Shown here: piece by piece, positions 4,630 through 55,634 of the stretch
How the letters are laid out: each line of letters opens with the position of its first letter
Position numbering within the stretch: the first letter of the stretch is position 1
Source of the DNA: Minisyncoccota bacterium
Lineage (GTDB): Bacteria > Patescibacteriota > Minisyncoccia > Phycocordibacterales > UBA9973
Length of the DNA stretch: 64,000 nt
NCBI GenBank assembly: GCA_028718635.1
Contig: JAQULK010000001.1
Span: 396,818 to 460,817, forward strand
Reading direction: 5' to 3'
Notes under the pieces: generated by a model
What the model was told of the DNA's origin: nothing
Databases searched by the model: none
What the model saw: only the letters and a program-made list of their open reading frames with translations
Translations under genes and position numbers: made by a program

Positions 4630-4745
4630 ATCCCGAACAAAATCGCGGACGCATAAAATAAACATAATTATGATTATTCAAAAAAATATTATTAACAATA
4701 AAACAAAGGATATCGCGTAAGCGTACGCGTCCTATTTTGTACGGG
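4630..4745 (+). repeat. Family A stop-to-start element, copy 1, with a mini-ORF at 4670..4720
   Basis: Starts 2 nt after the GH130 TGA and ends at the hpf ATG. tcccgaacaaaatcgcggacgc ... cgcgtaagcgtacgcgtcctattttgtacggg. Encodes MIIQKNIINNKTKDIA*. Confidence 0.7.
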
Positions 4746-5144
4746 ATGAAGATAAATTTACAAGGAAAAGGTATTGAGCTGACGGAGTCCATTAAAGACT
4801 ATGTATTAAAAAGAGTTACCAATTTAGAGAAATTGCTCTCTGGTATTGAAGCAGGGAAGGGAGAAGCGATGGTAAATTTTGAAGTGGTAAAGACTACTAA
4901 TCATCATAAGACAGGTGAGATTTTTCATGCTAGTTGTGCGATAAAGGTAGATGGAAAAAAGTTTTATAGTGAAAGTGATAATGAAGATTTATATAGTGCA
5001 GTGGATGAGGTGAAAGAAACTCTCTTTAACGAAATAAGTAAAAACAAAGACAGAAAACAAACTCTCTATAAACGTGGAGCCACCAGCGTGAAAAAAATGT
5101 TCAAAGGTCTTTCTAAAAGAAACCCTTTTACTTCAAAGTATTAG
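4746..5144 (+). CDS. hpf: Ribosome hibernation promoting factor (HPF/RaiA, short form)
   Basis: 'MKINLQGKGIELTESIKDYVLKRV..LEK' is classic HPF. I prefer the ATG at 4746 over the ORF-caller's TTG at 4737. Confidence 0.85.
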   Translation: MKINLQGKGIELTESIKDYVLKRVTNLEKLLSGIEAGKGEAMVNFEVVKTTNHHKTGEIFHASCAIKVDGKKFYSESDNEDLYSAVDEVKETLFNEISKNKDRKQTLYKRGATSVKKMFKGLSKRNPFTSKY

Positions 5145-5193
5145 TCTTCAAGAAATCCTTAAGAAATCCTCGTATTTTATTTCTTTTTTTCCT

Positions 5194-5243
5194 TCAGGAA
5201 GAACCCCATACTAGAGCGAAGCTCAGTACGGGGCATGCTTTTT
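5194..5243. terminator. Bidirectional intrinsic terminator between convergent hpf and fmt
   Basis: Imperfect GC-rich hairpin ccccatact(a)gagc-gaa-gctcagtacgggg followed by catgcttttttt. On the other strand the hairpin is preceded by an A-run. Confidence 0.6.
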
Positions 5244-6095
5244 TTAATTTACATAATCTATTTCTTTTCCATTTTCTGGTATTATTTTTTTTATCACTAA
5301 TTTTTTATTTTCTAATTTAGCTTCGGTTATTTTTATTCTTTTGCCATTTTTTATGAAATATATACCCGGCCAGCCGTAAAGCGCGCAATATTTAGTGTAA
5401 ATTTCTTTTGGCGAATCATTTAACAAATCCACCAAACCATCTTCTTTTTTGATTTTTTCACAATAGGTTGCTTTAGATTCATCTTGAGGTTTTGGAGTTA
5501 TTTTTTCTTTTATATAATCCTCCAGTACTTTTACTAATAATTTTCCGCCTTCTCGAAAAAGTTTTTCTTCTAAAATAGGCAAAAGAGGAGGCCAATCCTT
5601 GTCATCTATTTCGACATTTTTTTGCGCCACGATCGGTCCATGATCCATTTTCTCATCTAAAATTATTACTGTTGCTCCAATATCTCTTTCATTGTTGAGT
5701 ATCGATGATCTTACAGGGGAAGGTCCGCGCAATCGAGGCAACATTGAGGGATGTACATTTAAAATTCCATGCTTCGGCATGTTTAGGATTTTTTGGGGCA
5801 GAATTTTTCCATAAGCAGTTAAGACAAAAACATCATATTCCATAAGCCCTGTCGGGTGTCCAACACCCGACAGGAAGTTTTCATCAATAACTTTAGGCTG
5901 GAGTGTCGGTATCCCATGAGCCTCTGCCCATTTTTTTACTGGCGGAGCTTCAAAATGGTGACCTCGTCCGATTTTTAAGTCTGGGGCAGTTACCACAAGA
6001 GAAGGGAAATATCCATCTTCTGCAAGTTCTTCTAATACATACACAGCCAAGTCTGGTGTTCCAAAGAATACAAATTTTAAGTTTTTGTTTTGCAT
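5244..6095 (-). CDS. fmt: Methionyl-tRNA formyltransferase
   Basis: 'FFGTPDLAV..L..L......VVTAPD...GRG.....PVK..A..HGIP' N-terminal formyltransferase domain plus a C-terminal domain. Start probably at the internal Met (MQNKNLKF). Confidence 0.85.
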   Translation of the reverse strand: MQNKNLKFVFFGTPDLAVYVLEELAEDGYFPSLVVTAPDLKIGRGHHFEAPPVKKWAEAHGIPTLQPKVIDENFLSGVGHPTGLMEYDVFVLTAYGKILPQKILNMPKHGILNVHPSMLPRLRGPSPVRSSILNNERDIGATVIILDEKMDHGPIVAQKNVEIDDKDWPPLLPILEEKLFREGGKLLVKVLEDYIKEKITPKPQDESKATYCEKIKKEDGLVDLLNDSPKEIYTKYCALYGWPGIYFIKNGKRIKITEAKLENKKLVIKKIIPENGKEIDYVN

Positions 6096-6099
6096 AAAT

Positions 6100-9676: not shown

Positions 9677-9703
9677 AATTTAAAAATATGATATAATAAA
9701 AAA

Positions 9704-11767: not shown

Positions 11768-11804
11768 TGTTTTTTCCGTAGTGAGCTTTGTTCTACTACT
11801 GGGA

Positions 11805-13691: not shown

Positions 13692-13753
13692 TGCTATAAT
13701 ATAGCATATAATGTCCTTGACAGCTCAGTGTTTTTTGTTGGGTAATATTAAAT

Positions 13754-17590: not shown

Positions 17591-17614
17591 GATTATACAC
17601 TTTTTTTATTTTTT

Positions 17615-17623
17615 GGTATAATT
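17615..17623 (+). promoter_or_regulatory. Extended -10 (TGgTATAAT) 5 nt upstream of the gap ATG
   Basis: ttggtataatttaattATG implies a leaderless gap transcript. Confidence 0.4.
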
Positions 17624-17628
17624 TAATT

Positions 17629-20775: not shown

Positions 20776-21774
20776 ATGTTGAATCCGAAATTAAAATTGA
20801 ATCCCAAAATTTTCAATGACGATGTCGAACAGGTCCCCATACGTAAAGGTTTCGGGCAGGGGCTGTTGATAGCGGGTGGGGTTAGTGAAAATGTCGTAGG
20901 ACTTTGCGCCGACCTGACAGAAAGCACTCAAATGAATTTATTTGCGGAAAAATTTCCCAATAGATTTATCCAAGTCGGAGTAGCAGAACAAAACCTAGTA
21001 ACAGTGGCTTCGGGTATGGCAGCTATGGGCAAGATTCCTTTTTGTTCTTCTTATGCGATGTTTTCTCCCGGGAGAAATTGGGAACAAATCAGAACAACAA
21101 TAACTTACAATGATAGGCCGGTAAAAATCGTGGGCTCTCATTCGGGTATTTCTGTGGGTCCTGATGGCGGTACGCACCAAGCGCTTGAAGACATAGCTTT
21201 GATGCGGGTGATGCCGAACGTTGACGTCATTTCTCCTTGTGACGCCCTTGAAGCTAAAAAAGCGACAATAGCGCTTGCAAAAACGGGGAAACCAGCATAC
21301 TTGCGTCTTGTTCGTGAAAAAACGCCAATCATTACCACGGAGGAAACTCCTATGCAAATAGGTAAAGCAGAAATTTTTTGGATGCCGGATGTAGGGTTGG
21401 CCCAGGTGGGAATAATCGTTACTGGCGGACTCATGTCGCACGCGCTTTTTGCCGCCAAAGAATTAGAGCAAGAAGGCATAAAAACAAAAGTGATGAATTT
21501 ATCAAGTATAAAACCAATAGATTCTGAAGCAATTGTCGCTTTAGCAAAAGAATGTAAAGCAATAGTGACAGCAGAAGAACATCAAATTGCCGGAGGCATG
21601 GGTTCGGCTGTAGCAGAGGTTTTAGCGGCCAATTATCCAACTGCCATTGAATTCATCGGTGTGCATGACCGATTCGGCCAATCCGGTACTCCAAAAGAAC
21701 TTATCGAACATTATGGTATGGGCAAAAATTCTATCAAAGAAGCGGTGAGGAAAGTTTTAAAAAGAAAAATTTAA
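20776..21774 (+). CDS. tkt: Transketolase, C-terminal (pyrimidine-binding) subunit
   Basis: 'GVAEQNLVTVASGMA', 'GPDGGTHQALEDIALMR'. Confidence 0.9.
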   Translation: MLNPKLKLNPKIFNDDVEQVPIRKGFGQGLLIAGGVSENVVGLCADLTESTQMNLFAEKFPNRFIQVGVAEQNLVTVASGMAAMGKIPFCSSYAMFSPGRNWEQIRTTITYNDRPVKIVGSHSGISVGPDGGTHQALEDIALMRVMPNVDVISPCDALEAKKATIALAKTGKPAYLRLVREKTPIITTEETPMQIGKAEIFWMPDVGLAQVGIIVTGGLMSHALFAAKELEQEGIKTKVMNLSSIKPIDSEAIVALAKECKAIVTAEEHQIAGGMGSAVAEVLAANYPTAIEFIGVHDRFGQSGTPKELIEHYGMGKNSIKEAVRKVLKRKI

Positions 21775-21785
21775 AATAGAACTTT

Positions 21786-21866
21786 TTTCGGTACGGATTT
21801 TTTGAAGCTTAAAAAATCCTGAAGTTTTCGGCTCGACAGCCTCAAAACCCCTTCAAAAGTTTATTT
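21786..21866 (+). repeat. Family C ~80-nt REP-like intergenic element, copy 1
   Basis: aactttttcggtacgg-GGATTTTTT-gaagctta-AAAAAATCC-tgaagtt-GC hairpin (ggct-cgac-agcc)-aaaaccccttcaaaagtt. Confidence 0.7.
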
Positions 21867-22867
21867 TAAATTTTTACAGTTTTATAGCTTTCTGGTATAT
21901 TTTCTAGATATTCTTCCAATTTTTCTTTTGTCAAAAGTCCTCTTTGCGCTCCGACTTCTTGGACCACGGACATAGAGTTTATGCCTGCCCAAGCCAAAGC
22001 TTCAGGCAAAGTTTTACCCAATATGGTTGCAATTACAATAGTGGAGGAAAAAGCATCTCCAGCGCCGGTGCGTTCATGGGGAGGTTTTGGATCAGGGTAA
22101 GGGGGCATAAATAAGTACTCTGCGCCGTCAAAAGTATAAGCGCCTTTTGGTCCGTCTGTAATTATCACAGTCTTTGGCCCGAGAGAATAAATCTTTTGGA
22201 GTAATTCTTTGATTTCTCCGCTATCTAACCCTAATATTTTTTTTGCTTCCTCAACATTGCAGAAAAACATATCAGTATGTTTATAGAGTCTTTGCAATTT
22301 TTCTTTTCCCAATTTTATTTCAAATTTTCCCGGCTCGAAAGCGAATTTTGTTTCTGGATGGGCATCTAAATAGTCGGCTATAGTGTAATGAAAAGGAAAG
22401 GCTGTTTCATTTACAGAACTGAAATAAATCCATTTTGGTTCGTCAAATTCTGGCAAGCTGTATGGATAAATTTCATGTTTTATTAAAATAGTTCTTTCAG
22501 CTTCATACCATAGAACAAAATGTTGATTAGTTTTTATTCCAGAATTTATTTTTATCAACTCGGTGCCGACCCCGTCCTTTTTAAGTGAATCTAAACAATC
22601 TATTCCTGCTTTATCATCCCCAACGTTGGAAACGAGCTTTGTCTCAAGTCCTAGCCGAGCAGCTGCCACCGCAACATTGCCTGCATTACCTACGGCGGGG
22701 AGAGCAAAAACATCTTCGTATGGAACTTTGTCCGCAAAAGGCAGGCATATCTCGTAATCTTTATTGTCAGGAGTCCCCTTGATGCTTGCGTCTTTTAATT
22801 TAATAAAAACATCTATCACAATATCCCCAATTGCTAAAAAATCAATTTTTTTATTGTCTTCACTCAT
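21866..22867 (-). CDS. PfkB-family carbohydrate kinase (ribokinase/fructokinase-like)
   Basis: N-terminal GG motif 'GDIVIDV' and C-terminal 'TGAGDAFSS'. Confidence 0.8.
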   Translation of the reverse strand: MSEDNKKIDFLAIGDIVIDVFIKLKDASIKGTPDNKDYEICLPFADKVPYEDVFALPAVGNAGNVAVAAARLGLETKLVSNVGDDKAGIDCLDSLKKDGVGTELIKINSGIKTNQHFVLWYEAERTILIKHEIYPYSLPEFDEPKWIYFSSVNETAFPFHYTIADYLDAHPETKFAFEPGKFEIKLGKEKLQRLYKHTDMFFCNVEEAKKILGLDSGEIKELLQKIYSLGPKTVIITDGPKGAYTFDGAEYLFMPPYPDPKPPHERTGAGDAFSSTIVIATILGKTLPEALAWAGINSMSVVQEVGAQRGLLTKEKLEEYLENIPESYKTVKI

Positions 22868-22881
22868 GGTATCATTCTACC

Positions 22882-24207
22882 ATGTTTAAAAAACTGATTC
22901 TAGTGGGGTTTGTTTTTTTATTTTTGGGATTTAAGTTGGTATTAGCTACAGAAGTGACACCGATTATTTCTTATACTTTAAATGGAACTTCTTCCAATAT
23001 TGTGGCAAATCCTGTTGTTAATCCTGTAGAAATTAAGTTCTCTGCTAATGAAAACATACCTAATTGGGTTTCAATAAAAATTGAAAAAAACGATGATTCT
23101 AGTATTTATAAAACATTTTCTCCTAATTCTTGTGACGGCACCGCTTATTGTACTGAAACATGGAATGGTGCCATATCTCCTAAAAATAAAGTCTTAGTTG
23201 ATGGTATATATAATATTTCTGTTCATGTGAAGAAAGATGTTGCAAGCCCAGTTACTTACGATTTCATATTGACTTCGCCTTATACAATAACAGTTGATAG
23301 CTCTTTATCTACTCCGTTACCTGTCTCTGATTCACCTAGTAATGATTCAAATTCTTCAACCAACACTTCAACAACTCAGCCAGAACCCAAGCCAAAAGTG
23401 ATTGAAAATCCGACCATGAAAGTAAAAATTTTAGCCAATGCTTTAGCTTTTACCGGGCAACCGCTTGAAATAAAAACTAATGTCTTAGGGTTTTCCAATG
23501 AAAATGTTGTTCTCGGCAGGGCTTCGTGGAATTTTGGCGACGGCGGTTCGTTGGAACAAATAAATAATTTTGAAAAATTTTCTCATACTTATTATTATTC
23601 AGGCGAGTATGTTTTATTTTTGGAATACTACCAAAATAATTTTTCAAAAACCCCCGAAGCGACCAGCAAAATGGTGGTAAAAGTTCTTCCGACTTCTGTT
23701 TTTATTTCTAAAGTAGGGGATGCAAAAGATTTTTTTATTGAACTCTCAAACAATGCCAGCTCGGACATAGATATCTCAAATTGGGTCATTAATGCAAATG
23801 GAAAAATTTTTATTTTTCCCAAAAACAGCGTGATTATGTCTAAAAAACAAGTAATTGTTCCTGGTAAAATAACCGGATTTACCCAGAACGATCAAAACAA
23901 CTTAAAACTTTATTCTGGAACTGGTGAATTGATATCTGATTATAATGCGGAAATACAACCCCCTAAATCTCCCCATCAAAATATGACGAGTAAAGTTTCT
24001 ACAGCGGTTCAACCGCTGGGAAATTCAGGAACTATCAATTTACAAAGCAATGTTATGAATAGTAGCAGTGAAGACAATTACTCTGTGCCCATCATTCCCA
24101 TCGCTTCTTTTGTTTTTATTGGAGCTAGCGCGGGCGCAGTTTATTTTATTCGCCGGAAAAAAGCCGTTGTCCAAGAAGGGGATGATTTTGATATTTTAGA
24201 TGAATAA
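22882..24207 (+). CDS. Membrane-anchored surface protein with a lamin-tail-like domain
   Basis: Signal peptide MFKKLILVGFVFLFLGF, Ser/Thr/Pro linker, LTD-like 'DFFIELSNNASSDIDISNWVINANGKIFIFP', C-terminal TM plus 'RRKK'. Confidence 0.6.
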   Translation: MFKKLILVGFVFLFLGFKLVLATEVTPIISYTLNGTSSNIVANPVVNPVEIKFSANENIPNWVSIKIEKNDDSSIYKTFSPNSCDGTAYCTETWNGAISPKNKVLVDGIYNISVHVKKDVASPVTYDFILTSPYTITVDSSLSTPLPVSDSPSNDSNSSTNTSTTQPEPKPKVIENPTMKVKILANALAFTGQPLEIKTNVLGFSNENVVLGRASWNFGDGGSLEQINNFEKFSHTYYYSGEYVLFLEYYQNNFSKTPEATSKMVVKVLPTSVFISKVGDAKDFFIELSNNASSDIDISNWVINANGKIFIFPKNSVIMSKKQVIVPGKITGFTQNDQNNLKLYSGTGELISDYNAEIQPPKSPHQNMTSKVSTAVQPLGNSGTINLQSNVMNSSSEDNYSVPIIPIASFVFIGASAGAVYFIRRKKAVVQEGDDFDILDE

Positions 24208-24223
24208 AAGTTACGAAACATAA

Positions 24224-24306
24224 ACTTTTCTTTGGTACGGATTTTTCGAAGCTTGAAAAATCCTGAAGTTCTCGCGCCGTCGCGCTCGAAACCCCTTCGA
24301 AAAGTT
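24224..24306 (+). repeat. Family C element, copy 2, itself nested inside a 14-bp outer inverted repeat (gttacgaaacataa / ttatgtttcgtaac)
   Basis: cttttctttggtacggatttttcgaagcttgaaaaatcctgaagttctcgcgccgtcgcgctcgaaaccccttcgaaaag. Confidence 0.7.
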
Positions 24307-24396
24307 ATGTTTCGTAACTCACGATTATAATGCCCTTTGAAATAAGGGTTTTTTCTGCTAGAATAAAAAATAGGGCAAAAATTGTCCTCTTTTTAT

Positions 24397-26166
24397 ATGG
24401 AAAAAGATTTTTCAAATTTAGATGTTGGGTTGGTGCTCAAATATTATTGGCAGGTAATTAAGAATTTTAAATTCTCCTTTTTTTGCGTTCTTGTCTCCAC
24501 AACACTTTTTTCTGCTCTCGATATCTATATACCGCTCCAATTTTTAAAACTTTGGGATATTCTTAATACCAATAATTTTGCCGTCGTTTCGACTGCTAAA
24601 TCGATTATTATTCTGATATTAATATTGGGACTAATTGGCTGGGTGCTTCGCAGGACTTCTGGATTTTTCCTATCATATTTCGAATCAGGAGTGATGGCCG
24701 GCCTCCGAGAACAGGCTTTTTCTTATATGATCGGTCATTCCCATTCTTTTTTTGCAAATAATTTTTCAGGTTCATTAACCAGGAAAATAAATAAATATGC
24801 TAATGCTTTTGAAAAATTAACAGACAGAATGGCTGCCGATGCTTTACCGCTTTTTGTCCGCAGTATCGGCGTATTCATTGCTGTTTATTCTTTGATTCCG
24901 AAATATGCATATATTTTAGGAATATTCTGTTTAGTTTTTTTATTAACTGCCTTTTTTTATATTCGATTTAAAATTAAATATGATGTGATCTCAGCTTTGG
25001 CTGACACCAGAACCACAGGAGTTTTTGCTGATGCCATTGGCAATCATTCCTCAATCCAGATTTTTACTGGTCATAAGTATGAGGAAAATCGAACAAGAAA
25101 AATAATTCAAAAACAACGGAAAGCGACAGTCTTTAATTGGTATTTATGGGAGGGACTTAATGCCATTCAAAGTTTTTATTCGGTCATCGTTCAATTTATT
25201 ATTTTTTGGGTAGCAATTAATGATTGGAGACTATCTCTCGTTACTTTACCCTTTATGGTATTACTTCAAAGTTATCTAGTTCGTTTGATTGATAGTTTAT
25301 GGAGTTTTGGCGGTATTGTGCGTACTTTTTATAACAGCTTTGCTGATGCTCAAGAAATGGCTATAGTTTTAGATTCGCCGTATGAAATAAGTGATAATGT
25401 AGAAAAAGTCGCGGAAAATATTAAAGGAGAAGTTGTTTTTAATAATGTTACTTACACATATAAAAATAATAAAAATAAAGTATTAGATAATTTTTCTTTA
25501 ACCATACCACCAGGACAAAAGATTGCATTGGTCGGTTCGTCTGGCGCCGGCAAGACGACCTTGGTTCGCTTATTGATGAGGTTGTTTAATATTCCTTCAG
25601 GGAAGATTACTATTGATGGAATTGATATCAGTAAAATTTCCCAAGAAAATCTTCGAGAGCAAATAGCTTTTGTTCCGCAAGACCCTGTTCTTTTTCATCG
25701 TACCTTGATGGAAAATATTCGTTATGGTAAAAGAAACGCCACAGACGAAGAAGTCATGAGAGCAGCCAAGCTCGCGCATTGTGATGAGTTTATTGATTCT
25801 TTGCCATTTCGCTATGAGACATACGTGGGAGAACGGGGAATAAAACTCTCGGGTGGGGAGCGTCAGAGGGTGGCTATCGCCCGCGCCATTATCAAAAATG
25901 CGCCGATTCTTATTTTAGATGAAGCTACTTCTTCGCTTGATTCCCATTCTGAATCTTTGATCCAAGATGCCCTTACTAAACTTATTGCCGGGAAAACTAC
26001 TATTGTTATCGCTCATCGACTTTCCACTATTAGGCAGATGGATAGAATAATCGTATTAGAAAAAGGAAAAATTGTCGAAGACGGAATCCACAGCGAACTG
26101 ATAAATAAAAAAGATGGATATTATAAAAAATTATGGGATCTTCAAGCGGGAGGATTTTTAGATTAA
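24397..26166 (+). CDS. ABC transporter, fused permease/ATPase (MsbA-like exporter)
   Basis: 6-TM N-terminus, Walker A 'GSSGAGKTT', signature 'LSGGERQRVAIARA', Walker B 'ILILDEATS'. I prefer the ATG at 24397 over the TTG at 24382. Confidence 0.85.
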   Translation: MEKDFSNLDVGLVLKYYWQVIKNFKFSFFCVLVSTTLFSALDIYIPLQFLKLWDILNTNNFAVVSTAKSIIILILILGLIGWVLRRTSGFFLSYFESGVMAGLREQAFSYMIGHSHSFFANNFSGSLTRKINKYANAFEKLTDRMAADALPLFVRSIGVFIAVYSLIPKYAYILGIFCLVFLLTAFFYIRFKIKYDVISALADTRTTGVFADAIGNHSSIQIFTGHKYEENRTRKIIQKQRKATVFNWYLWEGLNAIQSFYSVIVQFIIFWVAINDWRLSLVTLPFMVLLQSYLVRLIDSLWSFGGIVRTFYNSFADAQEMAIVLDSPYEISDNVEKVAENIKGEVVFNNVTYTYKNNKNKVLDNFSLTIPPGQKIALVGSSGAGKTTLVRLLMRLFNIPSGKITIDGIDISKISQENLREQIAFVPQDPVLFHRTLMENIRYGKRNATDEEVMRAAKLAHCDEFIDSLPFRYETYVGERGIKLSGGERQRVAIARAIIKNAPILILDEATSSLDSHSESLIQDALTKLIAGKTTIVIAHRLSTIRQMDRIIVLEKGKIVEDGIHSELINKKDGYYKKLWDLQAGGFLD

Positions 26167-26286
26167 TCCCGTTAGAAGCCGCGATCGCAATTTAAAAACA
26201 AACAAAAACATGAAATTAGAAATTATAAAAATTAATAATATTAAACATCAGATACGCGAGTTGATCGCGATCTGCTTCTAAACGGG
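26167..26286 (+). repeat. Family B ~120-nt stop-to-start intergenic element, copy 1, with a mini-ORF at 26210..26281
   Basis: Terminal inverted repeats tcccgttagaagccgcgatcgc / gcgatcgcgatctgcttctaaacggga. Starts 1 nt after the ABC-transporter TAA and ends at the lepA ATG. Encodes MKLEIIKINNIKHQIRELIAICF*. Confidence 0.7.
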
Positions 26287-28170
26287 ATGGATTTAAAACA
26301 CATTAGAAACTTTAGCATAATAGCGCACATTGACCACGGTAAAAGTACTTTAGCGGATAGAATGCTTGAAATTACGCATACAATAGAAACACGGAAAATG
26401 CGCAACCAGTTTTTAGACTCTATGGAACTGGAGCGCGAAAGAGGAATTACTATAAAAATGCAACCCGTTCGAATGGAATACACCCCTCCCCAAACCCCTC
26501 CCCAAAAGGGAGGGGCACCTTCTCTTTTGGAGAAGGCGGGGGAAGGGGTGTATATTTTAAATCTTATTGATACGCCCGGTCATATAGATTTTTCTTATGA
26601 AGTTTCTCGAGCATTAAAGGCGGTAGAGGGTTCTATTTTGCTTATTGACTCAACTCAAGGGGTGCAAGCGCAAACGCTTACCACTCTCGCTATGGCGCGA
26701 GAGGGAGGTCTTAAAATAATCCCAGTACTCTCTAAGATTGATTCGCCTTTATCCAGAGTTTCGGAGGTAAAAGATGAAGTAGTGGATCTTTTAAATTGCG
26801 ATCCGGATGAAATTTTATTAGTTTCTGGACGCACAGGAGAAGGAGTTGAAAATCTTCTTAAGGAAGTAATAAAACGAGTACCAGAACCAAAAGAAACCAT
26901 TTCGGACGTTGGACGTCTGGATTCCGGACGTCCAACGTCCGAAATCCTGCGCGCCTTAGTTTTTGATTTTAAATATTCAAATCATAGAGGGGTGATAGTT
27001 TTTGTGCGCGTCTTTGATGGAAAAGTCGCAAAGGGCGACAGTTTGGTTTTTGCAGTTTCTGGCGAGAAATTTACCGCTCTTGAAGTCGGAACTTTTTCTC
27101 CAGAAGAAACCCCGCGCGATTTTCTTTCTCCTGGGGACACGGGTTATATCGTCACTGGCATAAAGAAGCCCGGCATAGCATCCGTTGGAGATACTATTAC
27201 GATGTTTAAAAATCCTTTGCCTGCATTTGAGGGATATATGCAACCATTGCCCGTAGTGTGGGCGAGCGTTTTTCCAGAAGATGCGGATGATTTTGCAGAA
27301 TTAAAACTTGCTTTAGGAAAATTAAAACTTTCTGATTCAGCGTTTTCCTACGAAGAAGAATCTTCTGGGTCCTTGGGCAGGGGATTCAGATGCGGATTCT
27401 TAGGAATGCTTCATTTGGAAATTATCACTGAGAGACTAAAACGCGAATTTAATTTGGAATTAGTCATCACTACGCCTTCCATCACTTATGAAGTTTTGTT
27501 AAAAAATGGAAAAAGAGAAAAAGTTTATTCCCCGTTTCATTTTCCGGACGATGGCCTAATCGAGAAGGTTTTCGAGCCTTGGGTAAGTTTGAAGATTATT
27601 ACTCCAGTCCAATATGTCGGCAGTGTTATCCAACTTCTTTTTGACCATGAGGGAGAAGTAGGTGATACAGAGAATTTTGGAGACAATCGCTCTACTATCT
27701 CCGTGAAAATGCCCTTACGAGAGCTTATGCGGAATTTTTTCGATGAATTAAAAAGTATTTCTTCTGGTTATGCTTCAATTTCTTATTCCATTGGGGAATT
27801 GCGGGAGGCAAATGTCACTAGGCTTGATCTACTAGTAGCAGACGAAGTGGTGCCAGCTTTTTCTCGGGTGGTGGCTAAAAAGAGAGCTGAAGTTGAAGCA
27901 GAAAATGCCGTCTTAAAATTAGATAATTTATTGCCGAGACAAATGTTTACTTTGAAAATTCAAGGCCGAGCGCTTGGACGGATTATTTCTTCCCGCACGA
28001 AATTCGGCATGAAAAAGGATGTGACTCAGCATATGTATGGAGGCGATATTACGCGAAAAATGAAACTTCGAGAGAAACAAAAGAAAGGCAAAAAGAAGAT
28101 GAAGGAAAGGGGACGAGTGAACATTCCGCAAGATGTGTTTTTGAAAATGATGCGAACGGGGGAAAAGTAA
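26287..28170 (+). CDS. lepA: Elongation factor 4 (LepA) carrying two in-frame palindromic insertions
   Basis: 'IIAHIDHGKSTLADR' and 'DTPGHIDF' G-domain motifs. Extra segments 'TPPQTPPQKGGAPSLLEKAGEGV' and 'ISDVGRLDSGRPTSEI' relative to canonical LepA. Confidence 0.9.
   Translation: MDLKHIRNFSIIAHIDHGKSTLADRMLEITHTIETRKMRNQFLDSMELERERGITIKMQPVRMEYTPPQTPPQKGGAPSLLEKAGEGVYILNLIDTPGHIDFSYEVSRALKAVEGSILLIDSTQGVQAQTLTTLAMAREGGLKIIPVLSKIDSPLSRVSEVKDEVVDLLNCDPDEILLVSGRTGEGVENLLKEVIKRVPEPKETISDVGRLDSGRPTSEILRALVFDFKYSNHRGVIVFVRVFDGKVAKGDSLVFAVSGEKFTALEVGTFSPEETPRDFLSPGDTGYIVTGIKKPGIASVGDTITMFKNPLPAFEGYMQPLPVVWASVFPEDADDFAELKLALGKLKLSDSAFSYEEESSGSLGRGFRCGFLGMLHLEIITERLKREFNLELVITTPSITYEVLLKNGKREKVYSPFHFPDDGLIEKVFEPWVSLKIITPVQYVGSVIQLLFDHEGEVGDTENFGDNRSTISVKMPLRELMRNFFDELKSISSGYASISYSIGELREANVTRLDLLVADEVVPAFSRVVAKKRAEVEAENAVLKLDNLLPRQMFTLKIQGRALGRIISSRTKFGMKKDVTQHMYGGDITRKMKLREKQKKGKKKMKERGRVNIPQDVFLKMMRTGEK
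26480..26551 (+). repeat. Family E GC-rich palindromic element inserted in frame in lepA (72 nt, 24 codons)
   Basis: acacccctccccaaacccctcccc-aaaa-gggaggggcaccttctc-tttt-ggagaaggcgggggaaggggtgt. Nested inverted repeats. Confidence 0.65.
26899..26945 (+). repeat. Family F 19-bp-arm perfect palindrome inserted in frame in lepA
   Basis: atttcggacgttggacgtc-tggattccg-gacgtccaacgtccgaaat. Confidence 0.65.
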
Positions 28171-28172
28171 TG

Positions 28173-28300
28173 AAATGCGAAACTCTTTCTTGGCACAAGT
28201 TTTCTGTCAGCACACATAAAAATCTGCTGATTTTTTGCTATGCTCGGCTACCCGCCTGCGCAATGCTTCCATAAAACTATGCCTGCGACGAGTTTCGCAT
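28173..28300 (+). repeat. Family D element, second (rearranged) copy, intergenic after lepA
   Basis: Shares ~60 nt with the tsaD in-frame insert (43672..43800): ctgctgatttttt-gctatgctcggct..cctgcgcaatgcttcc and cacaagttttctg. Confidence 0.55.
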
Positions 28301-28442
28301 TTAAAATTACCTACCTAAAAATCGGCGAGTAGAGCAGGATCATGCTGATGATAATCAGTATACTTACTACTGCCCAAACTATTTGTATTTTCTTTTGATG
28401 TTTTTTATTAAAAAGCATACAATAAGGATAGCATATTATGAG

Positions 28443-28565
28443 TCCCGTTAGAAGCCGCGGTCGCAGTTTAATATAATAAAATAATGTTGTCAAAATAAAT
28501 ATGAAATTTAATCACATAATTGAGCATAGTATCGGTATACAGACCGCGACCTGCTTCTAAACGGG
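28443..28565 (+). repeat. Family B element, copy 2, with a mini-ORF at 28501..28560, ending at the ATG of the ftsB-like gene
   Basis: tcccgttagaagccgcggtcgcag ... cagaccgcgacctgcttctaaacggg ATG. Encodes MKFNHIIEHSIGIQTATCF*. Confidence 0.7.
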
Positions 28566-28940
28566 ATGAGAAATTTTCAAGAAAAAAGAGGCTGGAGAAA
28601 TATAGTCCAATCAAAACCATTTTTGATACTTTTTTGCATTGTAATTTTATTTTTTTCATGGAATGTTTTTGTTTTCTGGAATAAAATGCAAGAGACCGTA
28701 AAAAATAAAAGAATAGTCGAAGACAAAATTGCTTTGCTGGAAAAACAAAAACAAGATATTTCTTCTGAAATAAGTAGTTTAAATACGCCGGAAGGCAAGG
28801 AAAAGTTCTTTAGGGAAAATTTGGGCTTAGCAAAAGAAGGGGAAGACGTGACGGTGGTGATAGAAGACAAAAACCCGCCTGCAGCTTCCAAACCGGCGTC
28901 TTCGGGTTTTTGGTCCTTTTTTACCAATTTGTTTAGATAA
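28566..28940 (+). CDS. Septum formation initiator (FtsB/DivIC-like)
   Basis: N-terminal TM, coiled coil 'IALLEKQKQDISSEISSL', C-terminal 'EKFFRENLGLAKEGEDVTVV' (DivIC signature). Confidence 0.7.
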   Translation: MRNFQEKRGWRNIVQSKPFLILFCIVILFFSWNVFVFWNKMQETVKNKRIVEDKIALLEKQKQDISSEISSLNTPEGKEKFFRENLGLAKEGEDVTVVIEDKNPPAASKPASSGFWSFFTNLFR

Positions 28941-28962
28941 TATCTATGATATAATATAGATT

Positions 28963-45553: not shown

Positions 45554-46545
45554 AGAGTAATATAGATATCTTCTATGGCGCGGACGGCATCGCCGGCTGC
45601 GATGAGGTTTTGATGATAGTGAATATTAGTGCAGTCCCCAGCAGCCCAAATTCCAAGGACTTCTGTTTTTTGGGACCAAGCATCTATTTTTACTTTACCT
45701 ATTTCATCTAAAGGAACCAAATCTTTTACAAAGTCAGTATTTGGAATCTGTCCGATTTCTACGAAAATGCCTGCTACTTTTAATTCTTTTTGTTCTCCGG
45801 AAATTTTATCCTTATAAATTATTCCTTCTACAAATTTATCGCCCTGTATTTCTAAAATATCAGCATTTTTTATTATTTTTATTTTTGGATTTTTTAAAAT
45901 TTTATCAATTGTAGTTTGGTCAGCGCGAAAAGAGTCGCTTCTGATTATAAGCGTGACAGATTTACAATATGCTAAAAGCTGGGAGGCTGATCCGAAAGCG
46001 GCATTACCTCCGCCGATCACAGCCACATCCATGTCTGCAAAAAGTGGACCATCACAACTGGCGCAGTAGGTAAGGCCTTTGTGCTCTAAAGTATCTGCAT
46101 TCTTAGCGGTGAGTTTTCTGTGTCCACTGCCGCTCCCTATTAAAATTGTTTTAGTTTCAAATTCCTTTCCAGATTCTGTTTTTACAGAAAAAAAGGAAGC
46201 AAGGCTTCCTTCAGCTCTTCCTTCAGCTGAAGGAAGCCTTGCTTCCTTTTTTTTAATTGCTGTTACTTTTTCGCCTTCTTTTACTTCTAGACTTTCTCCC
46301 ACATTTTCTAAAACATGTTTTTTAAAATTTTCTGCAAGTTGTGCTCCGGAGATAGCAGGGGATCCTATCCAATTTTTAATTTCTTCTGAAGCTATGCTCT
46401 GCCCACCCCACTCTGAAATAACAAAAAGTGTCTTCAGTTTCTTTCGAGCTGCGTAAACAGCCGCTGCGCTCCCAGCCGGCCCACCTCCAATAATTATTAG
46501 ATCGTAAATCATTTGCATATTATACATCATGAATAGGAATTTCAA
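45541..46545 (-). CDS. trxB: Thioredoxin-disulfide reductase with an in-frame palindromic insertion
   Basis: 'IIGGGPAGSAAAVYAAR' FAD site, 'CASCDG' redox centre. Extra 'KKEARLPSAEGRAEGSLASFF' segment. Confidence 0.85.
   Translation of the reverse strand: MKFLFMMYNMQMIYDLIIIGGGPAGSAAAVYAARKKLKTLFVISEWGGQSIASEEIKNWIGSPAISGAQLAENFKKHVLENVGESLEVKEGEKVTAIKKKEARLPSAEGRAEGSLASFFSVKTESGKEFETKTILIGSGSGHRKLTAKNADTLEHKGLTYCASCDGPLFADMDVAVIGGGNAAFGSASQLLAYCKSVTLIIRSDSFRADQTTIDKILKNPKIKIIKNADILEIQGDKFVEGIIYKDKISGEQKELKVAGIFVEIGQIPNTDFVKDLVPLDEIGKVKIDAWSQKTEVLGIWAAGDCTNIHYHQNLIAAGDAVRAIEDIYITLKAK
46187..46253. repeat. Family G 21-bp-arm perfect palindrome flanked by A7/T9, inserted in frame in trxB
   Basis: aaaaaaa-ggaagcaaggcttccttcagc-tcttccttca-gctgaaggaagccttgcttcc-ttttttttt. 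Confidence 0.7.
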
Positions 46546-46550
46546 AATAA

Positions 46551-46633
46551 ACTTTTGCAGGGGTTTTCCGAGCGACGGCGAGGAAACTTCAGGAATTTTT
46601 AAGCTTAAAAAATTCCGTACCGGAAAAAGTTTA
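46551..46633 (-). repeat. Family C element, copy 4 (minus orientation), between ftsZ and trxB
   Basis: Reverse complement reads aactttttccggtacgg-GGAATTTTTT-aagctt-AAAAATTCC-tgaagtt...aaaacccctgcaaaagtt. Confidence 0.7.
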
Positions 46634-46645
46634 ATTTTGGAATTC

Positions 46646-47950: not shown

Positions 47951-49114
47951 CTACGGCATCAATTGCTTGAGGTTTGATTTTAAAAGGTTTTTGAAATCTT
48001 TGAAAAGATTACCCAAAGAGCTGTCGGAATAACTGTCGCCGTCCTTGCCGGAAGAGAGAAGGCCAATAGCGGTGAAATAAGACGGGTCGCGAAGTTTTGT
48101 CTTGGCATTGCCGAAGATTTCTATAGCGCCAATATTCGATGGAAGCTTGAGAATCGATTTTGATAATTCTGTCAAACGAGGAGTATTTGCTCCGCCGCCT
48201 ACGAATACTATGCCCGCCGGCAAGAGTTCTGATCTTTTTATTTTTCTTAAATTATTTTCTATTGATTCAAAAATATCGCACAATCGCGCTTCGATAATCT
48301 CATCGAGTTTTTTCTTAGAAAATTCTCCCGTATCGTTTCCGAGTTTTAAAGCTTCCGCTTTCTCTAGTGGGATTTTAAAACCAAGAGCGATGTCGTTGGT
48401 TATTTTATTCGAGCCTATAAGAAAGGTGCTCATTGATACCAATAATCCATTTTCAAAAACAGAAAGGGAAGTCGTCTGGTCTCCGATGTCTACCAATGCC
48501 ACTCCCACGATTTTTTGTTTTTCTGACAAGGCTATGTCCGCAATGGCGACCGGCGATGCTATGACATCCAAGGTATCGACTCCGGCTTCTGCAATAGCTT
48601 TTACCAAATCTTCTAAATATACGATAGAATAAGTGACAAAAAGAGTTTTAACTTCAAGCTTCGTTCCAAACATTCCCTCTAATCTTCCCAGCACTTCTTT
48701 TCCATCAAGCCTGAAAGTTTGCGGATAAATATGAATGATTTTTTTATTGCTTAGGTTTAAATTGTTTTCACAATCTTGAACGGCTTTATTGATGTCGAGA
48801 GCAGTTACTTCGCCGTTTGCTTTTGAAATAATTGTTTCCCCTGAACTTGCGATGCTCTGCAAAGTGGCGCCAGAGATCGAAACAAAGCATCGTTTGATTT
48901 TTAGGCCGGAAGTTTTTTCAGCCATCTTCACGGCAGAACTTACCGAAGCGGTTACGAGAGAAGAGTTTACGACATAACCATTCCGCATGCCGAGCGTCAC
49001 ACTTTCACCCATACCAATAATTTTAGGATTTTTTTCTCCCTTGATGAATTCTCCGACTACGACTCGCGTCATGGACGATCCCACGTCTATGCCTACCGAA
49101 ATATTTCTTATCAT
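47951..49114 (-). CDS. ftsA: Cell division protein FtsA
   Basis: Actin-like ATPase fold, 'VGIDVGSSMTRVVV', 'VFVGGGANTPRL'. Confidence 0.9.
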   Translation of the reverse strand: MIRNISVGIDVGSSMTRVVVGEFIKGEKNPKIIGMGESVTLGMRNGYVVNSSLVTASVSSAVKMAEKTSGLKIKRCFVSISGATLQSIASSGETIISKANGEVTALDINKAVQDCENNLNLSNKKIIHIYPQTFRLDGKEVLGRLEGMFGTKLEVKTLFVTYSIVYLEDLVKAIAEAGVDTLDVIASPVAIADIALSEKQKIVGVALVDIGDQTTSLSVFENGLLVSMSTFLIGSNKITNDIALGFKIPLEKAEALKLGNDTGEFSKKKLDEIIEARLCDIFESIENNLRKIKRSELLPAGIVFVGGGANTPRLTELSKSILKLPSNIGAIEIFGNAKTKLRDPSYFTAIGLLSSGKDGDSYSDSSLGNLFKDFKNLLKSNLKQLMP

Positions 49115-49175
49115 CCCGATACTAAAATTTTAACTTTTAATACCCTTATTATATCACTTTCTCAAAAATTAGGCG

Positions 49176-49556
49176 CTAGCCGTTACGGGATAAATATTTT
49201 TCTTCCATTTCTTCCATTTTCGAGCCGTGTTCATATCCTTTTAGATGCAGCATTCCGTGGATAACTAAAAAGCCCAAAAAGTCGCTGAAAGTTTTGTTAA
49301 AATTTTTAGCCTCCTTTTTTATAACAGCGGGGCACAATATTATTTCTCCTTCATTTTTACTTAACAAAAAAGATAAAATGTTTGTGGGTTTATTTTTGTT
49401 CCTATATTTTTTATTTATTTCTTTAGAAGTTTTTTCATCGACGCAAGCGATGGACAAGGAATATTTCTTACCTAAAATATCTTCTTTTAAAAGTACAAAA
49501 GGCAAGCGAGGAAGCTTGCCTTTTGTTTTGTTTATTAAAGAAAAATTCTCCTCCAT
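49176..49556 (-). CDS. ybeY: Endoribonuclease YbeY (rRNA maturation)
   Basis: 'HGMLHLKGYEH' zinc-binding H3xH5xH motif. Confidence 0.85.
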   Translation of the reverse strand: MEENFSLINKTKGKLPRLPFVLLKEDILGKKYSLSIACVDEKTSKEINKKYRNKNKPTNILSFLLSKNEGEIILCPAVIKKEAKNFNKTFSDFLGFLVIHGMLHLKGYEHGSKMEEMEEKYLSRNG

Positions 49557-52492: not shown

Positions 52493-52493
52493 G

Positions 52494-53390: not shown

Positions 53391-53800
53391 TGAGACAAGC
53401 AACCTTACAATTAAAAACACGAATATCCAATGTAAATATTATGAACAATAATATTGAAATTAAAAAAAATATTTTGTATACAATGATCTTTATTTTTGCG
53501 GGTTTGGCGCTTTTTTATGTATTTATTTTGGGAAACATGGTTTTCAACATTGTGGAAAGAAGAAATTTAGAAAAAGAAATGCTTTCTTTGTCCAATGAGG
53601 TGGGCAACTTACAAGTTTCTTATTTAGCTGTTTCAAATAGTGTTGATATGAATCTTTCATCTTCTATGGGATTTAAGGAAACCAAGGCAACTTTTGCCAC
53701 TCGAAAAACCCTCGGCCGTAGCCCTACGGGCGAGGCTCTCGGATTCAATGCAAGCAGTGATCATCTTGGAAACGTAAAATTTGCCAATAATGAAATCTAG
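53390..53800 (+). CDS. FtsL-like cell-division protein (TM plus coiled coil). True start probably internal (MNNNIEI, ~53438)
   Basis: In the ftsL position between rsmH and ftsI. TM 'ILYTMIFIFAGLALFYVFIL' then coiled coil. Confidence 0.5.
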   Translation: MRQATLQLKTRISNVNIMNNNIEIKKNILYTMIFIFAGLALFYVFILGNMVFNIVERRNLEKEMLSLSNEVGNLQVSYLAVSNSVDMNLSSSMGFKETKATFATRKTLGRSPTGEALGFNASSDHLGNVKFANNEI

Positions 53801-55508
53801 TTTTGTTTTTAGATCCAGAATAATTCTTCTTTTTGTTTTGATTTTTGCCGGTGTGCTCGTAACAAAACTTTTTTTTGTGCAATTAGTACATAGCAATACT
53901 TATTCAGAAACCGCAGATCGCCAATATTCCACGCCTTCATCCAATATTTTTGAACGCGGAACTATTTATTTTGTACGCAAAGATGGAGCGCTTGTTCCGG
54001 CTGCGATCCAAACTGCCGGTTTTAAAATGGCTATCAATCCAAATAAAATTACCAATGGAGAAGCTGTCTATAAAAAATTATCAAAAATAGCAACTTTTGA
54101 TTACACGAATTTTATATTAAGAGCAGGACAAAAGAATGATCCATATGAAGAGATAGCGAACCATCTTTCTAAAGAACAAGCTGATGCCATCTCAGCATTA
54201 AAAATTCCCGGAGTAAATATTTTTAAAGAAAAATGGCGTTTTTACCCTGGAGGCAATTTGGCTGCGCACGCGCTCGGCTTTGTGGGGTATAAAGGTGATG
54301 AATTGGGAGGGCGTTATGGGCTTGAAAGGCAATATGATTCCATCCTTGCCCGAAACGTGGACAATCCTTATGTTAATTTTTTTGCTGAAGTTTTCTCCAA
54401 TATTAATGAAACTTTGTTTGAAAAAAATAAAGTGGCAGAGGGGGACATCGTGACGACAATCGAGCCTCAAGTTCAAAGTTTTTTAGAAAAAAAATTGGCT
54501 GAAGTAAAGAATAAATATCAGATTGATTCTGTCGGTGGAATAATTATGAATCCTATGGACGGATCCATCTATGCGCTCGGAGCGCTACCTTCTTTTGATC
54601 CGAATAATTTTGCTCAAAATAAAACTGTCTTAGTTTTCTCGGATCCATTAGTAGAAAATGTTTTAGAGTTTGGTTCCGTGGTTAAACCTTTAGTTATGGC
54701 ATCTGCTCTGGACGCAAAAGTAGTCACTGCCAACACGACGTACAACGATAAAGGCGAAGTTACTGTCGAAAAACACCAAATATTTAATTTCGATAAAAAA
54801 GGCAGAGGCCTAGGCACTACTATGCAGGATGTTCTTAATCAATCTCTCAACACCGGTATGGTTTTTGTAGAACAGAAATTAGGTAAAGTAAAATTACGCG
54901 ATTATTTATTGAGTTTTGGCATTAAAGATAAAACTGGGATAGATCTGCCGAATGAAACCTCGGGACTTGTTTCTGGGATACTGACTAGTCCTCGCGAGAT
55001 CGAGTATGCCAATGCGGCTTTTGGACAAGGAATTGCTTTTACCCCATTTGAATTAATTCGAGCTTTAGCCTCTCTTAGTAATGGCGGTAATTTAGTTACT
55101 CCTCATCTTGTTTCTGAAATAAAATATACTGATGGGACTTCTAAGAAAATTACTTATTCGGCAATTCCTACAAAAATTACCAAAGCCTCCTCGGAAGAGA
55201 TAACCAGAATGCTGGTGCAAGTTATGGATAAAGGAATAGCTGGAGATTCGAAAAAACTTGAGCATTTTAGCGTAGCAGCCAAGACAGGTACGGCGCAAGT
55301 TGCGGATAATCTAAATGGAGGATATTATAAAGATAGGCATAACCATTCTTTTGTAGGTTATTTCCCCGCTTACGATCCTAAATTTATAGTTTTTCTTTAT
55401 GCCATAAATCCTAAAGGGGTGCTTTATTCTGCTACGACTTGGACGGATCCTTTTTTGGAAATTGCGAAATTTTTATTAAATTATTACAATGTTCCGCCGG
55501 ATAGGTAA
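53781..55508 (+). CDS. ftsI: Penicillin-binding protein 2/3 (FtsI-like transpeptidase)
   Basis: N-terminal TM, 'GSVVKP' (SxxK), 'NQSLNTG' (SxN) and 'KTGTAQ' (KTG). Confidence 0.9.
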   Translation: MPIMKSSFVFRSRIILLFVLIFAGVLVTKLFFVQLVHSNTYSETADRQYSTPSSNIFERGTIYFVRKDGALVPAAIQTAGFKMAINPNKITNGEAVYKKLSKIATFDYTNFILRAGQKNDPYEEIANHLSKEQADAISALKIPGVNIFKEKWRFYPGGNLAAHALGFVGYKGDELGGRYGLERQYDSILARNVDNPYVNFFAEVFSNINETLFEKNKVAEGDIVTTIEPQVQSFLEKKLAEVKNKYQIDSVGGIIMNPMDGSIYALGALPSFDPNNFAQNKTVLVFSDPLVENVLEFGSVVKPLVMASALDAKVVTANTTYNDKGEVTVEKHQIFNFDKKGRGLGTTMQDVLNQSLNTGMVFVEQKLGKVKLRDYLLSFGIKDKTGIDLPNETSGLVSGILTSPREIEYANAAFGQGIAFTPFELIRALASLSNGGNLVTPHLVSEIKYTDGTSKKITYSAIPTKITKASSEEITRMLVQVMDKGIAGDSKKLEHFSVAAKTGTAQVADNLNGGYYKDRHNHSFVGYFPAYDPKFIVFLYAINPKGVLYSATTWTDPFLEIAKFLLNYYNVPPDR

Positions 55509-55518
55509 TAGGATATGA

Positions 55519-55634
55519 ATCCCGAACGAAATCGCGGACGCATAAAATAAATAAATTTATGAAATTGATTAAAGATATTTTTAATAGTAAAACAAAGGAA
55601 AAAGCGTAAGCGTACGCGTCCTATTTCGTACGGG
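55519..55634 (+). repeat. Family A ~116-nt stop-to-start element, copy 2, with a mini-ORF at 55559..55609
   Basis: tcccgaacgaaatcgcggacgc ... cgtaagcgtacgcgtcctatttcgtacggg ATG (murF). Encodes MKLIKDIFNSKTKEKA*. Confidence 0.7.

Follow-up and report, generated by a model that had tools for sequence, protein, structure and literature searches.

The window analysed here, a stretch of 64,000 nucleotides (nt) from the genome of a Minisyncoccota bacterium (contig JAQULK010000001.1, positions 396,818 to 460,817), harbors four copies of a hairpin-forming element, each placed directly before the start codon of a housekeeping gene. An earlier note on this DNA had described them as two copies of a type A (A1 and A2) and two of a type B (B1 and B2), and all four exist within ±1 nt of where it had put them. 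Each copy opens with TCCCG and closes with CGGGA, the final A being the A of the host ATG, and the 3' ends read ...ACGGG followed by the ATG of hpf, murF, lepA and a divIC/ftsB-like gene, as had been reported. Pfam labels of the host genes were taken from syntenic orthologues. The distance from the upstream stop codon to the 5' edge is 1 nt for A1, 11 nt for A2, 0 nt for B1 and about 270 nt for B2, so that three of the four 5' ends do lie beside a stop. The mini open reading frames that had been quoted from the cores are also present.

A1 (positions 4631-4746, forward strand, 116 nt, TCCCGAACAAAATCGCGGACGC ... GCGTCCTATTTTGTACGGGA) ends on the first base of hpf (4746-5144, forward strand), whose orthologues carry the Ribosomal_S30AE domain. 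It is flanked by two copies of the target ATGAA, at 4626-4630 and 4746-4750. The upstream copy overlaps the TGA stop (4627-4629) of the preceding gene, and its ATG lies 6 nt downstream of a TATAAT box (4614-4619). A first upstream open reading frame (uORF1, 4626-4661, forward strand, MNPEQNRGRIK and stop) begins at this duplicated ATG and crosses the 5' arm; the second (uORF2, 4670-4720, forward strand, MIIQKNIINNKTKDIA and stop) is the mini-ORF of the earlier note, and its stop is located inside a small terminator-like hairpin (4714-4729), 25 nt upstream of the hpf ATG. A2 (55520-55635, forward strand, 116 nt) is identical to A1 at 101 of 116 positions, and the stems of the two copies differ by one compensatory change, ACGAAAT/ATTTCGT versus ACAAAAT/ATTTTGT. 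Its duplicated ATGAA stands at 55515-55519 and again at 55635-55639, and its two uORFs, both on the forward strand, at 55515-55550 (MNPERNRGRIK and stop) and 55559-55609 (MKLIKDIFNSKTKEKA and stop). The gene targeted by A2 (55635-56957, forward strand) is murF-like, a label carried over from the earlier note; it clusters with the gene behind an element outside the window (locus L003). In both A-type elements the terminator-like hairpin, CGCGTAAGCGTACGCG, is followed by a T-tract (window 4714-4729 and 55604-55617). Two such hairpins with a T-tract holding the mini-ORF stop were found, versus 0.1 expected.

B1 (26167-26287, forward strand, 121 nt) starts directly after the TAA of an upstream ABC-transporter gene and precedes lepA (26287-28170, forward strand). 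It has no upstream copy of the ATG, and ATTAA stands in that place. The B1 uORF (26210-26281, forward strand, MKLEIIKINNIKHQIRELIAICF) ends at a TAA that belongs to the 3' arm and leaves 5 nt to the lepA ATG, and its frame is free of stops back to an ATT at 26162. B2 (28443-28566, forward strand, 124 nt) is a lineage-specific insertion, identical to B1 at 97 of 124 positions. It is flanked by ATGAG at 28438-28442 and 28566-28570, and precedes the divIC/ftsB-like gene (28566-28940, forward strand). Three uORFs on the forward strand lead across it: a first from the duplicated ATG (28438-28476, MSPVRSRGRSLI and stop), a middle one of four codons (28484-28498) and a last one (28501-28560, MKFNHIIEHSIGIQTATCF) whose stop, part of the 3' arm, is 5 nt away from the divIC ATG.

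Architecture and distribution

A and B had been taken for two families. Both fit a single degenerate arm consensus and share the architecture TCCCG–arm–AT-rich core–arm–CGGGA, and by their sequences they are thus subfamilies of one superfamily. Copies outside the window were gathered with one degenerate 5'-arm pattern from one genome per species, which gave at least 120 loci. Almost all of the loci listed come from metagenome-assembled genomes of Patescibacteria, mainly Parcubacteria/Paceibacteria lineages (Nomura-, Vogel-, Sungii-, Lipton-, Kaiser-, Terry-, Taylor- and Giovannonibacteria, Paceibacterota and one Levyibacteriota); many are from generically labelled bins, and a few are chance matches in GC-rich Proteobacteria and Acidobacteria. 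Several genomes give multiple loci, with up to 4 copies in one 8-kb locus (L085). With the seed copy of each locus excluded, about 15 additional copies occur in ~0.8 Mb, or roughly 10-20 per genome. The elements are 110-124 nt in size and carry no transposase gene; their arms are always about 95 nt apart among the 120 loci listed, and no pair more than ~200 nt apart was seen in ~900 kb. There were no element matches in viral contigs, phage records and plasmids (0 in the viral-contig scan; blastn for phages and plasmids). A comparison with Rfam 15 returned only tRNAs at gathering score across the whole window, and no match at E<=1 over 21700-28650.

The window copies fold as RNA into one long hairpin each (z from -3.9 to -4.35, with 0 of 200 shuffles as good), and the terminal inverted repeats around an AT-rich core that had been described are the two sides of this long terminal helix. 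The common architecture comprises a 13-bp proximal helix, an asymmetric internal loop with three bases on the 5' side (usually CGC) and one on the 3' side (usually U), a 6-bp distal helix and a variable AT-rich core of ~70 nt, with a mean minimum free energy of -37 kcal/mol. A CAC variant of the internal loop occurs in copies found via the 3' arm. In 67 distinct arm pairs of ~20 bp, 98.6% of the cells are standard pairs. The covariation that the earlier note had asked of the terminal helix is present, with double-sided changes at 8 of 19 pairs (126 cells); the score was reached by 0 of 500 shuffles, and slid registers fall far below it. Arm covariation alone would also be expected of two transposon ends bound by one protein. 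The mismatches are asymmetric, with 29 G·U in the sense strand against 10 A·C (p=0.003), which double-stranded recognition would not lead one to expect and which suggests folding of the sense strand, be it as RNA or as single-stranded DNA. Since the U of the downstream AUG is paired to the purine at -1, the helix takes in both the A and the U of the real start codon.

A search with arm profiles (nhmmer) recovered exactly these four full copies in the window, plus a partial match at ~63570. Three smaller elements also adjoin start codons. C1 (18667-18732, forward strand, TCCCGTTA...TAATGGGA) adjoins the ATG at 18732 and has no distal helix; C2 (63515-63579, reverse strand), of the same short type, adjoins the ATG at 63515, has TGTTATAAT in its core and is the weak nhmmer arm match; D (49114-49190, reverse strand, ATCCCGTAACGG...TATCGGGA) adjoins the ATG at 49114 and has TGATATAAT in its core. 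C1, C2 and D are probably decayed relatives of the large elements. With 4 copies and 3 relics in 64 kb the density in the window is high, and ~10% of its genes carry a copy or a relic. A further short hairpin, TCCCAGTAGTA...TACTACGG(GA), was observed twice, at 354-384 (forward strand) and 11774-11803 (reverse strand), 8-13 nt upstream of the ATGs of the genes at 398 (forward) and 11767 (reverse). As in the large elements, the first of these closes with GGGA; the second closes with GGA, and both are without the long core.

Placement, target duplication and mobility

Placement was counted in the 105 cleanly delimited copies from the loci listed. The start-codon position noted for the window copies holds for these too: the ATG of an open reading frame, mostly a long one and sometimes cut by the end of the locus, lies directly 3' of 103 of the 105. 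Only about two (L112, L043) are exceptions, and none is in reverse orientation relative to the gene. The bases before TCCCG are A (87), T (84), G (73), any base, and a purine (103 of 105). A direct duplication flanks 85 of the 105 copies, of 4 nt (TGNR) in 69, 3 nt in 11, 5 nt in 4 and 7 nt in 1; the usual form is A/TGNR, which leaves ATGNR on both sides because the terminal A of the element supplies the A of the gene ATG. Many of the 20 copies without a repeat are one base off, and that base is often the G of the upstream ATG. The variable bases that are repeated (AA, AG, GA, CG, TA, CAA and others) match the second codon of the host gene itself, and the repeat is therefore a target-site duplication and not element sequence. 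In the window the duplications read ATGAA-A1-ATGAA, ATGAA-A2-ATGAA and ATGAG-B2-ATGAG. The filling of stop-to-start gaps, described earlier as a property of the elements, is then a by-product of start-codon insertion in a compact genome.

Of the 981 ATGNR strings in the window, 29 are at starts, 48 in intergenic sequence and 904 in coding sequence. We rejected recognition of ATGNR with purging of coding insertions as a full account, since many intergenic copies would then be expected. Insertion must either be aimed at real initiation sites or be followed, elsewhere, by a much faster loss of the copies. A symmetric Y...R preference, of the sort a staggered 4-bp cut would show, agrees with the T...R ends of the duplication but not with a fixed ATG on one side.

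The elements are non-autonomous; they are mobile and resemble miniature transposable elements with inverted repeats (MITEs), because close relatives have empty sites at hpf and divIC. Syntenic contigs of relatives were reached via proteins 83-89% identical to the LepA and a GH130 protein of the window. In 12 of the 13 orthologous sites read, the divIC start is ...ATGAGaaat without insertion, whereas the window has B2 between its two ATGAG; hpf in two relatives (L125, L126) reads TATAAT-N6-ATG and is free of the element. At lepA the relatives have a TAA, a spacer of 12-14 nt and the ATG, and B1 stands in place of the spacer. B1 has thus been remodelled, its duplication being absent as well. No arm matches were found in 52 kb of the relatives' loci, and the genes that flank the elements keep their order in relatives without them. 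The mobility that the earlier note had allowed for is thus borne out by duplications and empty sites. It had set the elements apart from MITEs; the inverted repeats, duplications, empty sites, tandem, nested and decayed copies and the lack of transposase coding are all MITE-like.

Copies in tandem share one ATGAA (L024, L085), small inserts are nested at the internal loop (L009, L049), and truncated (L036, L048) and decayed (L068, L108) copies occur. The nested inserts are hairpins themselves, ctgccggcaggcagg in L009 (~5170-5310) and CCTCGGGACTGAGTCCTCGGGACGAAC in two copies of L049 (1989-2140 and 2615-2765). Different arm subtypes are found at the same gene across lineages, namely at ssb (four times), topA, murF, the genes for glycyl-tRNA synthetase (GlyRS), lysyl-tRNA synthetase (LysRS) and trigger factor, and rpsH, which points to repeated independent insertion rather than to an inherited regulon. 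A vertically inherited regulon was rejected on this mix of subtypes together with the empty sites in close relatives. Older remnants of a 3' arm (...TAACGGGATG) were seen before several elements, in the left flanks of L032, L029 and L057 and at window 4620-4630; one remnant lies directly after a TAGAAT box. Such remnants suggest that elements have inserted repeatedly at one start codon and that the old copies decay into promoter-proximal sequence.

Other inserts and repeats were observed in the same clade. Two loci with identical LepA, L123 (~5100-5156) and L124 (~2440-2485), differ by a 42-nt insert and an ATGA duplication. The insert sits exactly at the divIC start, ATGA-CCCGTTCGACAAACTCAGGGTCATGGTGAATAAAATTGAACC-ATGAG, and begins like the 5' arm minus its T. 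It represents a deleted derivative or else a further small start-codon element. L130 has a hairpin insert of another kind, CCCCCACACCTATTT...AAATAGGTGTGGGGG, in the promoter region of divIC, ~100 nt upstream of the ATG at 701; it has TATA on both sides and represents another MITE-like family. A second repeat family of ~95 nt (...GGTACGGATTTTTTGAAGCTTAAAAAATCCTGAAGTTTTCGGCTCGACAGCCTCAAAACCCC...) is present in the window at 21773-21867, 24217-24311 and 63632-63726 on the forward strand and at 46538-46638 on the reverse strand. It has two internal hairpins within outer A/T-rich inverted repeats, is placed after the 3' ends of genes, has no Rfam match, and is kept in relatives downstream of lepA (L121, L123, L127, L128, L132). 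LepA itself varies from 595 to 664 residues among close relatives (homologues P0001-P0120; 627 residues in the window). Nearly all homologues have the same N- and C-termini, and the length difference is therefore mainly due to internal insertions.

Upstream reading frames and translation of the host genes

A -10 box (TAnnnT) lies 5-8 nt upstream of 21 of the 48 window genes that start with ATG, versus 9.6% of all ATG triplets, and a Shine-Dalgarno-like 4-mer precedes 1 of the 48, versus 8.5% in the background. The genome is indeed poor in Shine-Dalgarno sites, as the earlier note had it, and since -10 boxes stand close to the ATGs and such sites are nearly absent, the host appears to translate mostly leaderless mRNAs. 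Extended -10 boxes (TGnTAnAAT) were observed, for example, at 9687-9703, 13692-13710, 17591-17628, 28946-28962 and 60113-60129. The duplicated ATG upstream of an element lies 5-8 nt after a strict -10 box in 24 of 101 copies and a few nt from a co-directional upstream stop, within an operon, in 47 of 101. The real AUG is behind the GC-rich arm, has neither a -10 box nor a Shine-Dalgarno site, and is partly paired. Targeting of transcription start sites is not supported by these counts. A promoter within the window copies was also rejected, as consensus matches do not exceed those in shuffles.

An ATG-started uORF of at least 16 codons that ends at the stop of the 3' arm is present in 64 of 101 copies. 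With shuffled cores the count is 12.7±3.2 (at most 23 in 300 trials), with reverse-complemented cores 18 and with reversed cores 6. The arm stop takes one of two forms, ...TTC TAA CGGG ATG, with the UAA 4-5 nt before the AUG, or a UGA in a second frame that overlaps AUGA. Stop codons make up 4.4% of the core in the arm-stop frame, versus 9.4% and 11% in the other frames, and the arm-stop uORF is found in 49 of the 77 elements whose cores match no other core. In 22 of the 82 copies with an intact upstream ATG, a single uORF runs from this duplicated ATG across the element, versus 5.9±2.3 expected; the other copies have a short first uORF and then one or two more. When the passage of ribosomes from one uORF to the next was simulated, the last stop lay 4-5 nt from the gene AUG in 42 of 68 successful relays (62% versus 32% in shuffles). 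The coupling of the host gene to a uORF by termination and reinitiation, one of the proposals of the earlier note, is thus backed by strong statistics over ~100 copies. In-frame N-terminal extensions are depleted, with 6 against 12.5 expected, and only 2 of 82 copies are fused in frame to the gene. In-frame read-through as an N-terminal extension was rejected because stops are present and the length varies.

The open frame and the position of the stop are conserved, and the sequence of the peptide is not. The earlier note had held that the mini-ORF peptides are conserved more than their DNA. In A1 and A2, the mini-ORFs are identical at 37 of 51 DNA positions versus 8 of 16 residues. The seven B-type mini-ORFs vary about equally at the three codon positions (13/13/11), and their synonymous fraction is 0.25, versus 0.23 and 0.22 off frame, so that a conserved peptide is rejected for this type. 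The six A-type mini-ORFs (positions 10/7/12) have a synonymous fraction of 0.39 versus 0.04 and 0.11, a weak hint of coding-like change. Neither length nor sequence is constant among further copies: the frames of L069 and L095 are broken, two A-type copies having indels of +4 and -2 nt. The spacer from the duplicated ATG to the arm varies from 1 to 3 nt, and the 3' arm is read in different frames, which end in …ASYF, …LFLTG or …IAICF before the stop. One GC-richer subfamily has an in-frame ...[SN][RK][IV]G[FL]G... motif with third-position variation.

Origin and translation of the elements

These observations are best accounted for, in our opinion probably correctly, by a selfish element that targets start codons and is tolerated through a relay of termination and reinitiation from the duplicated AUG to the real one. 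Hosts of this kind would use leaderless mRNAs and tight stop-start junctions in place of Shine-Dalgarno sites. After an insertion, ribosomes would go on loading where they had done so before, at what has become the duplicated AUG, either at the 5' end of the transcript or beside the upstream stop. They would translate one uORF, or a relay of two or three, and in doing so melt the hairpin of about -37 kcal/mol that buries the A and U of the start codon; they would then terminate at the arm stop a few nt before the real AUG and reinitiate there. The insertion would thus be nearly neutral for the gene. Expression of the host gene would select for an open frame and leave the peptide unconstrained, and the same selection would remove reversed copies, whose cores are not open. 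The arms would be retained because mobilisation needs them, whether as inverted repeats or in the form of a folded strand. In the A-type variant, ribosomes may scan further before they reinitiate, or the element may act in the manner of an attenuator. A purpose-built host device, as the earlier note had proposed, is less likely than a selfish element shaped for tolerance. The broader notion of translation-transparent selfish elements, which would home to initiation sites by more than the ATGNR string and be bypassed by ribosomes via the uORF relay across the hairpin, we put forward tentatively, as somewhat more doubtful than an even chance.

Several observations weigh against this relay and its mobile carrier. 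About 36% of the copies are without a long arm-terminated uORF, 12 of 82 copies in the relay simulation overrun the gene AUG out of frame, and the last uORF of A1 and A2 ends 25 nt before the AUG instead of 4-5 nt. B1 has neither upstream ATG nor duplication and has replaced a spacer. Leaderless initiation might suffer from a strong hairpin that begins 5 nt behind a 5'-terminal AUG. The ATGNR string does not suffice for placement at start codons, as the window has 48 intergenic non-start sites versus 29 start sites. The invariance of the 5' arm is partly a matter of construction, the loci having been gathered with one 5'-arm pattern, and no autonomous partner or transposase was found in ~900 kb of loci, viral contigs, phages and plasmids.

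The alternative that survives best, and that we still hold to be unlikely, is a plain selfish MITE whose hairpin consists of transposase repeats only, whose host gene is expressed from a promoter in the core or by internal initiation, and whose uORFs are incidental. Inverted repeats, target duplications and empty sites are all present, TATAAT-like strings are frequent in the AT-rich cores, the decayed C2 and D have TGnTATAAT boxes there, and the long uORF is absent from 36% of the copies. However, promoter-like matches in the window copies are not above the shuffled expectation, and the last 25 nt before the AUG are GC-rich arm, so that the gene could not be leaderless from a core promoter, nor does it have a Shine-Dalgarno site. 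Incidental uORFs also fail to explain an excess of about five-fold over three kinds of controls, which extends to unrelated cores, or a depletion of stops that is limited to the arm-stop frame. The excess of G·U over A·C in the sense strand argues for the folding of one strand.

The elements might instead be a domesticated cis-regulatory RNA. The conserved helix, with its invariant internal loop, would sequester the start codon until a factor (such as RNase III, an RNA-binding protein, temperature or the supply of ribosomes) opens, cleaves or binds it, which would bring scattered genes under common control, and the A-type could be a leader-peptide transcription attenuator. The pairing of the A and U of the start codon, the sense-strand G·U excess and arms that are nearly identical over distant lineages while the cores cannot be aligned are consistent with this; so are, for the A-type, the terminator-like hairpin and T-tract with the uORF2 stop (2 versus 0.1 expected) and the synonymous-bias hint (0.39 versus 0.04 and 0.11 off frame). 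The host genes are, however, a near-random sample of housekeeping genes with different subtypes at the same gene across lineages, presence and absence vary among relatives with 83-89% identical proteins, cores are variable, tandem and nested copies occur, and there is no Rfam match even at E<=1. Such a regulatory role for the superfamily seems to us quite unlikely.

It is improbable that the elements are mobile mini-genes, with the peptides of 16-40 residues (small toxins or membrane peptides, for instance) as their functional product. There is a strong enrichment of open frames, one subfamily has the in-frame glycine-containing motif given above, and the A-type has its synonymous bias; but peptides from unrelated cores have only the arm-encoded residues in common, the frame of the 3' arm differs between copies, the B-type has no codon-position or synonymous signal, frame-breaking indels occur in the A-type, and the duplicated ATG is set off from the arm by a spacer that varies from 1 to 3 nt. 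Translational bypassing, in which a ribosome on the duplicated AUG would carry its initiator tRNA over the hairpin base, by sliding or hopping, and land on the identical AUG, is highly improbable. The identical take-off and landing codons that flank a compact hairpin, and are brought together by its base, do recall such systems, and the duplication is kept in ~80% of the copies. Nevertheless, no stop or hungry codon follows the take-off AUG, the next codon being NRU and thus sense, long open uORFs that end beside the landing AUG are unexpected if the element is skipped, and many copies are operon-internal. Finally, attC-like structure-specific recombination sites at the boundaries of gene cassettes, suggested by imperfect intergenic hairpins with a conserved asymmetric bulge and a variable loop, can be all but dismissed, since relatives without the element have the same gene order, the termini differ from attC core sites, and the target duplication, including its variable bases, flanks the element alone.

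Among known systems, the elements share with MITEs terminal inverted repeats, target-site duplication, empty sites, small size and several copies per genome. Correia elements (CREE/NEMIS) of Neisseria are ~100-150 nt long with terminal inverted repeats, and form a long hairpin when co-transcribed with their neighbours. They have a target-site duplication, many copies per small genome and no transposase gene, and affect the expression of adjacent genes. Their duplication is TA, their repeats are of 26 bp and their distance to genes varies, whereas the elements described here have A/TGNR at the start codon and TCCCG/CGGGA termini; unlike Correia elements, they also have a fixed orientation, a rebuilt ATG and, in most copies, a uORF that stops 4-5 nt before it. 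Rickettsia palindromic elements (RPE) are likewise selfish palindromes that persist in essential genes whose product is kept functional, but they insert in frame and are translated within the host protein, whereas the present elements precede the coding sequence and contain stops. REP/REPIN-RAYT, IS200/IS605-derived elements and attC sites resemble them as imperfect intergenic hairpins recognised as a folded single strand, with the structure conserved more than the loop. These have no target duplication, in contrast to the 3-5-nt duplication that is the rule here, and the terminal motifs are GTAG-type (REP) and RYYYAAC/GTTRRRY (attC) as opposed to TCCCG/CGGGA. The elements are set apart from Correia, REP/REPIN, IS200/IS605-derived, attC and RPE sequences by their target, their termini and their relation to the open reading frame.

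Two further systems are reminiscent of the elements in translation. Bypass elements (the gap of T4 gene 60, and byp of Magnusiomyces mitochondria) are translation-neutralised inserts with identical flanking codons and a compact structure, and the byp elements are thought to be mobile. They are skipped undecoded inside an open reading frame, whereas the evidence here points to decoding of uORFs in an insert at the initiation codon. Termination-reinitiation, 70S scanning and uORF-hairpin leaders (ORF-11 of the integron attI1; the shunt leader of cauliflower mosaic virus, CaMV) have a short reading frame that ends near the main AUG, deliver ribosomes to a start that has no ribosome-binding site of its own, and place a stable stem between the loading and landing sites. 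Such leaders are fixed at one locus, whereas here the device would be carried by a mobile element across many unrelated genes and lineages. Full-text literature searches returned no description of a start-codon-targeting hairpin element.

If the relay is correct, a mobile element would have found its niche at the start codons of essential genes in very small, gene-dense bacterial genomes, and the ribosome relay would join RNA splicing and protein splicing as a third strategy by which selfish DNA can reside within genes. In the broader, translation-transparent form, the elements would be the translational counterpart of introns and inteins, and a natural read-out of reinitiation in leaderless Patescibacteria without Shine-Dalgarno sites. 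They mislead gene callers on start sites, and might be used as a compact, portable and insulated translational coupler in the synthetic biology of leaderless systems. In the host lineages, they may shape gene expression and promoter turnover, and they would provide direct, testable evidence for termination-reinitiation as a main route of translation in uncultured Patescibacteria that have no Shine-Dalgarno sites.

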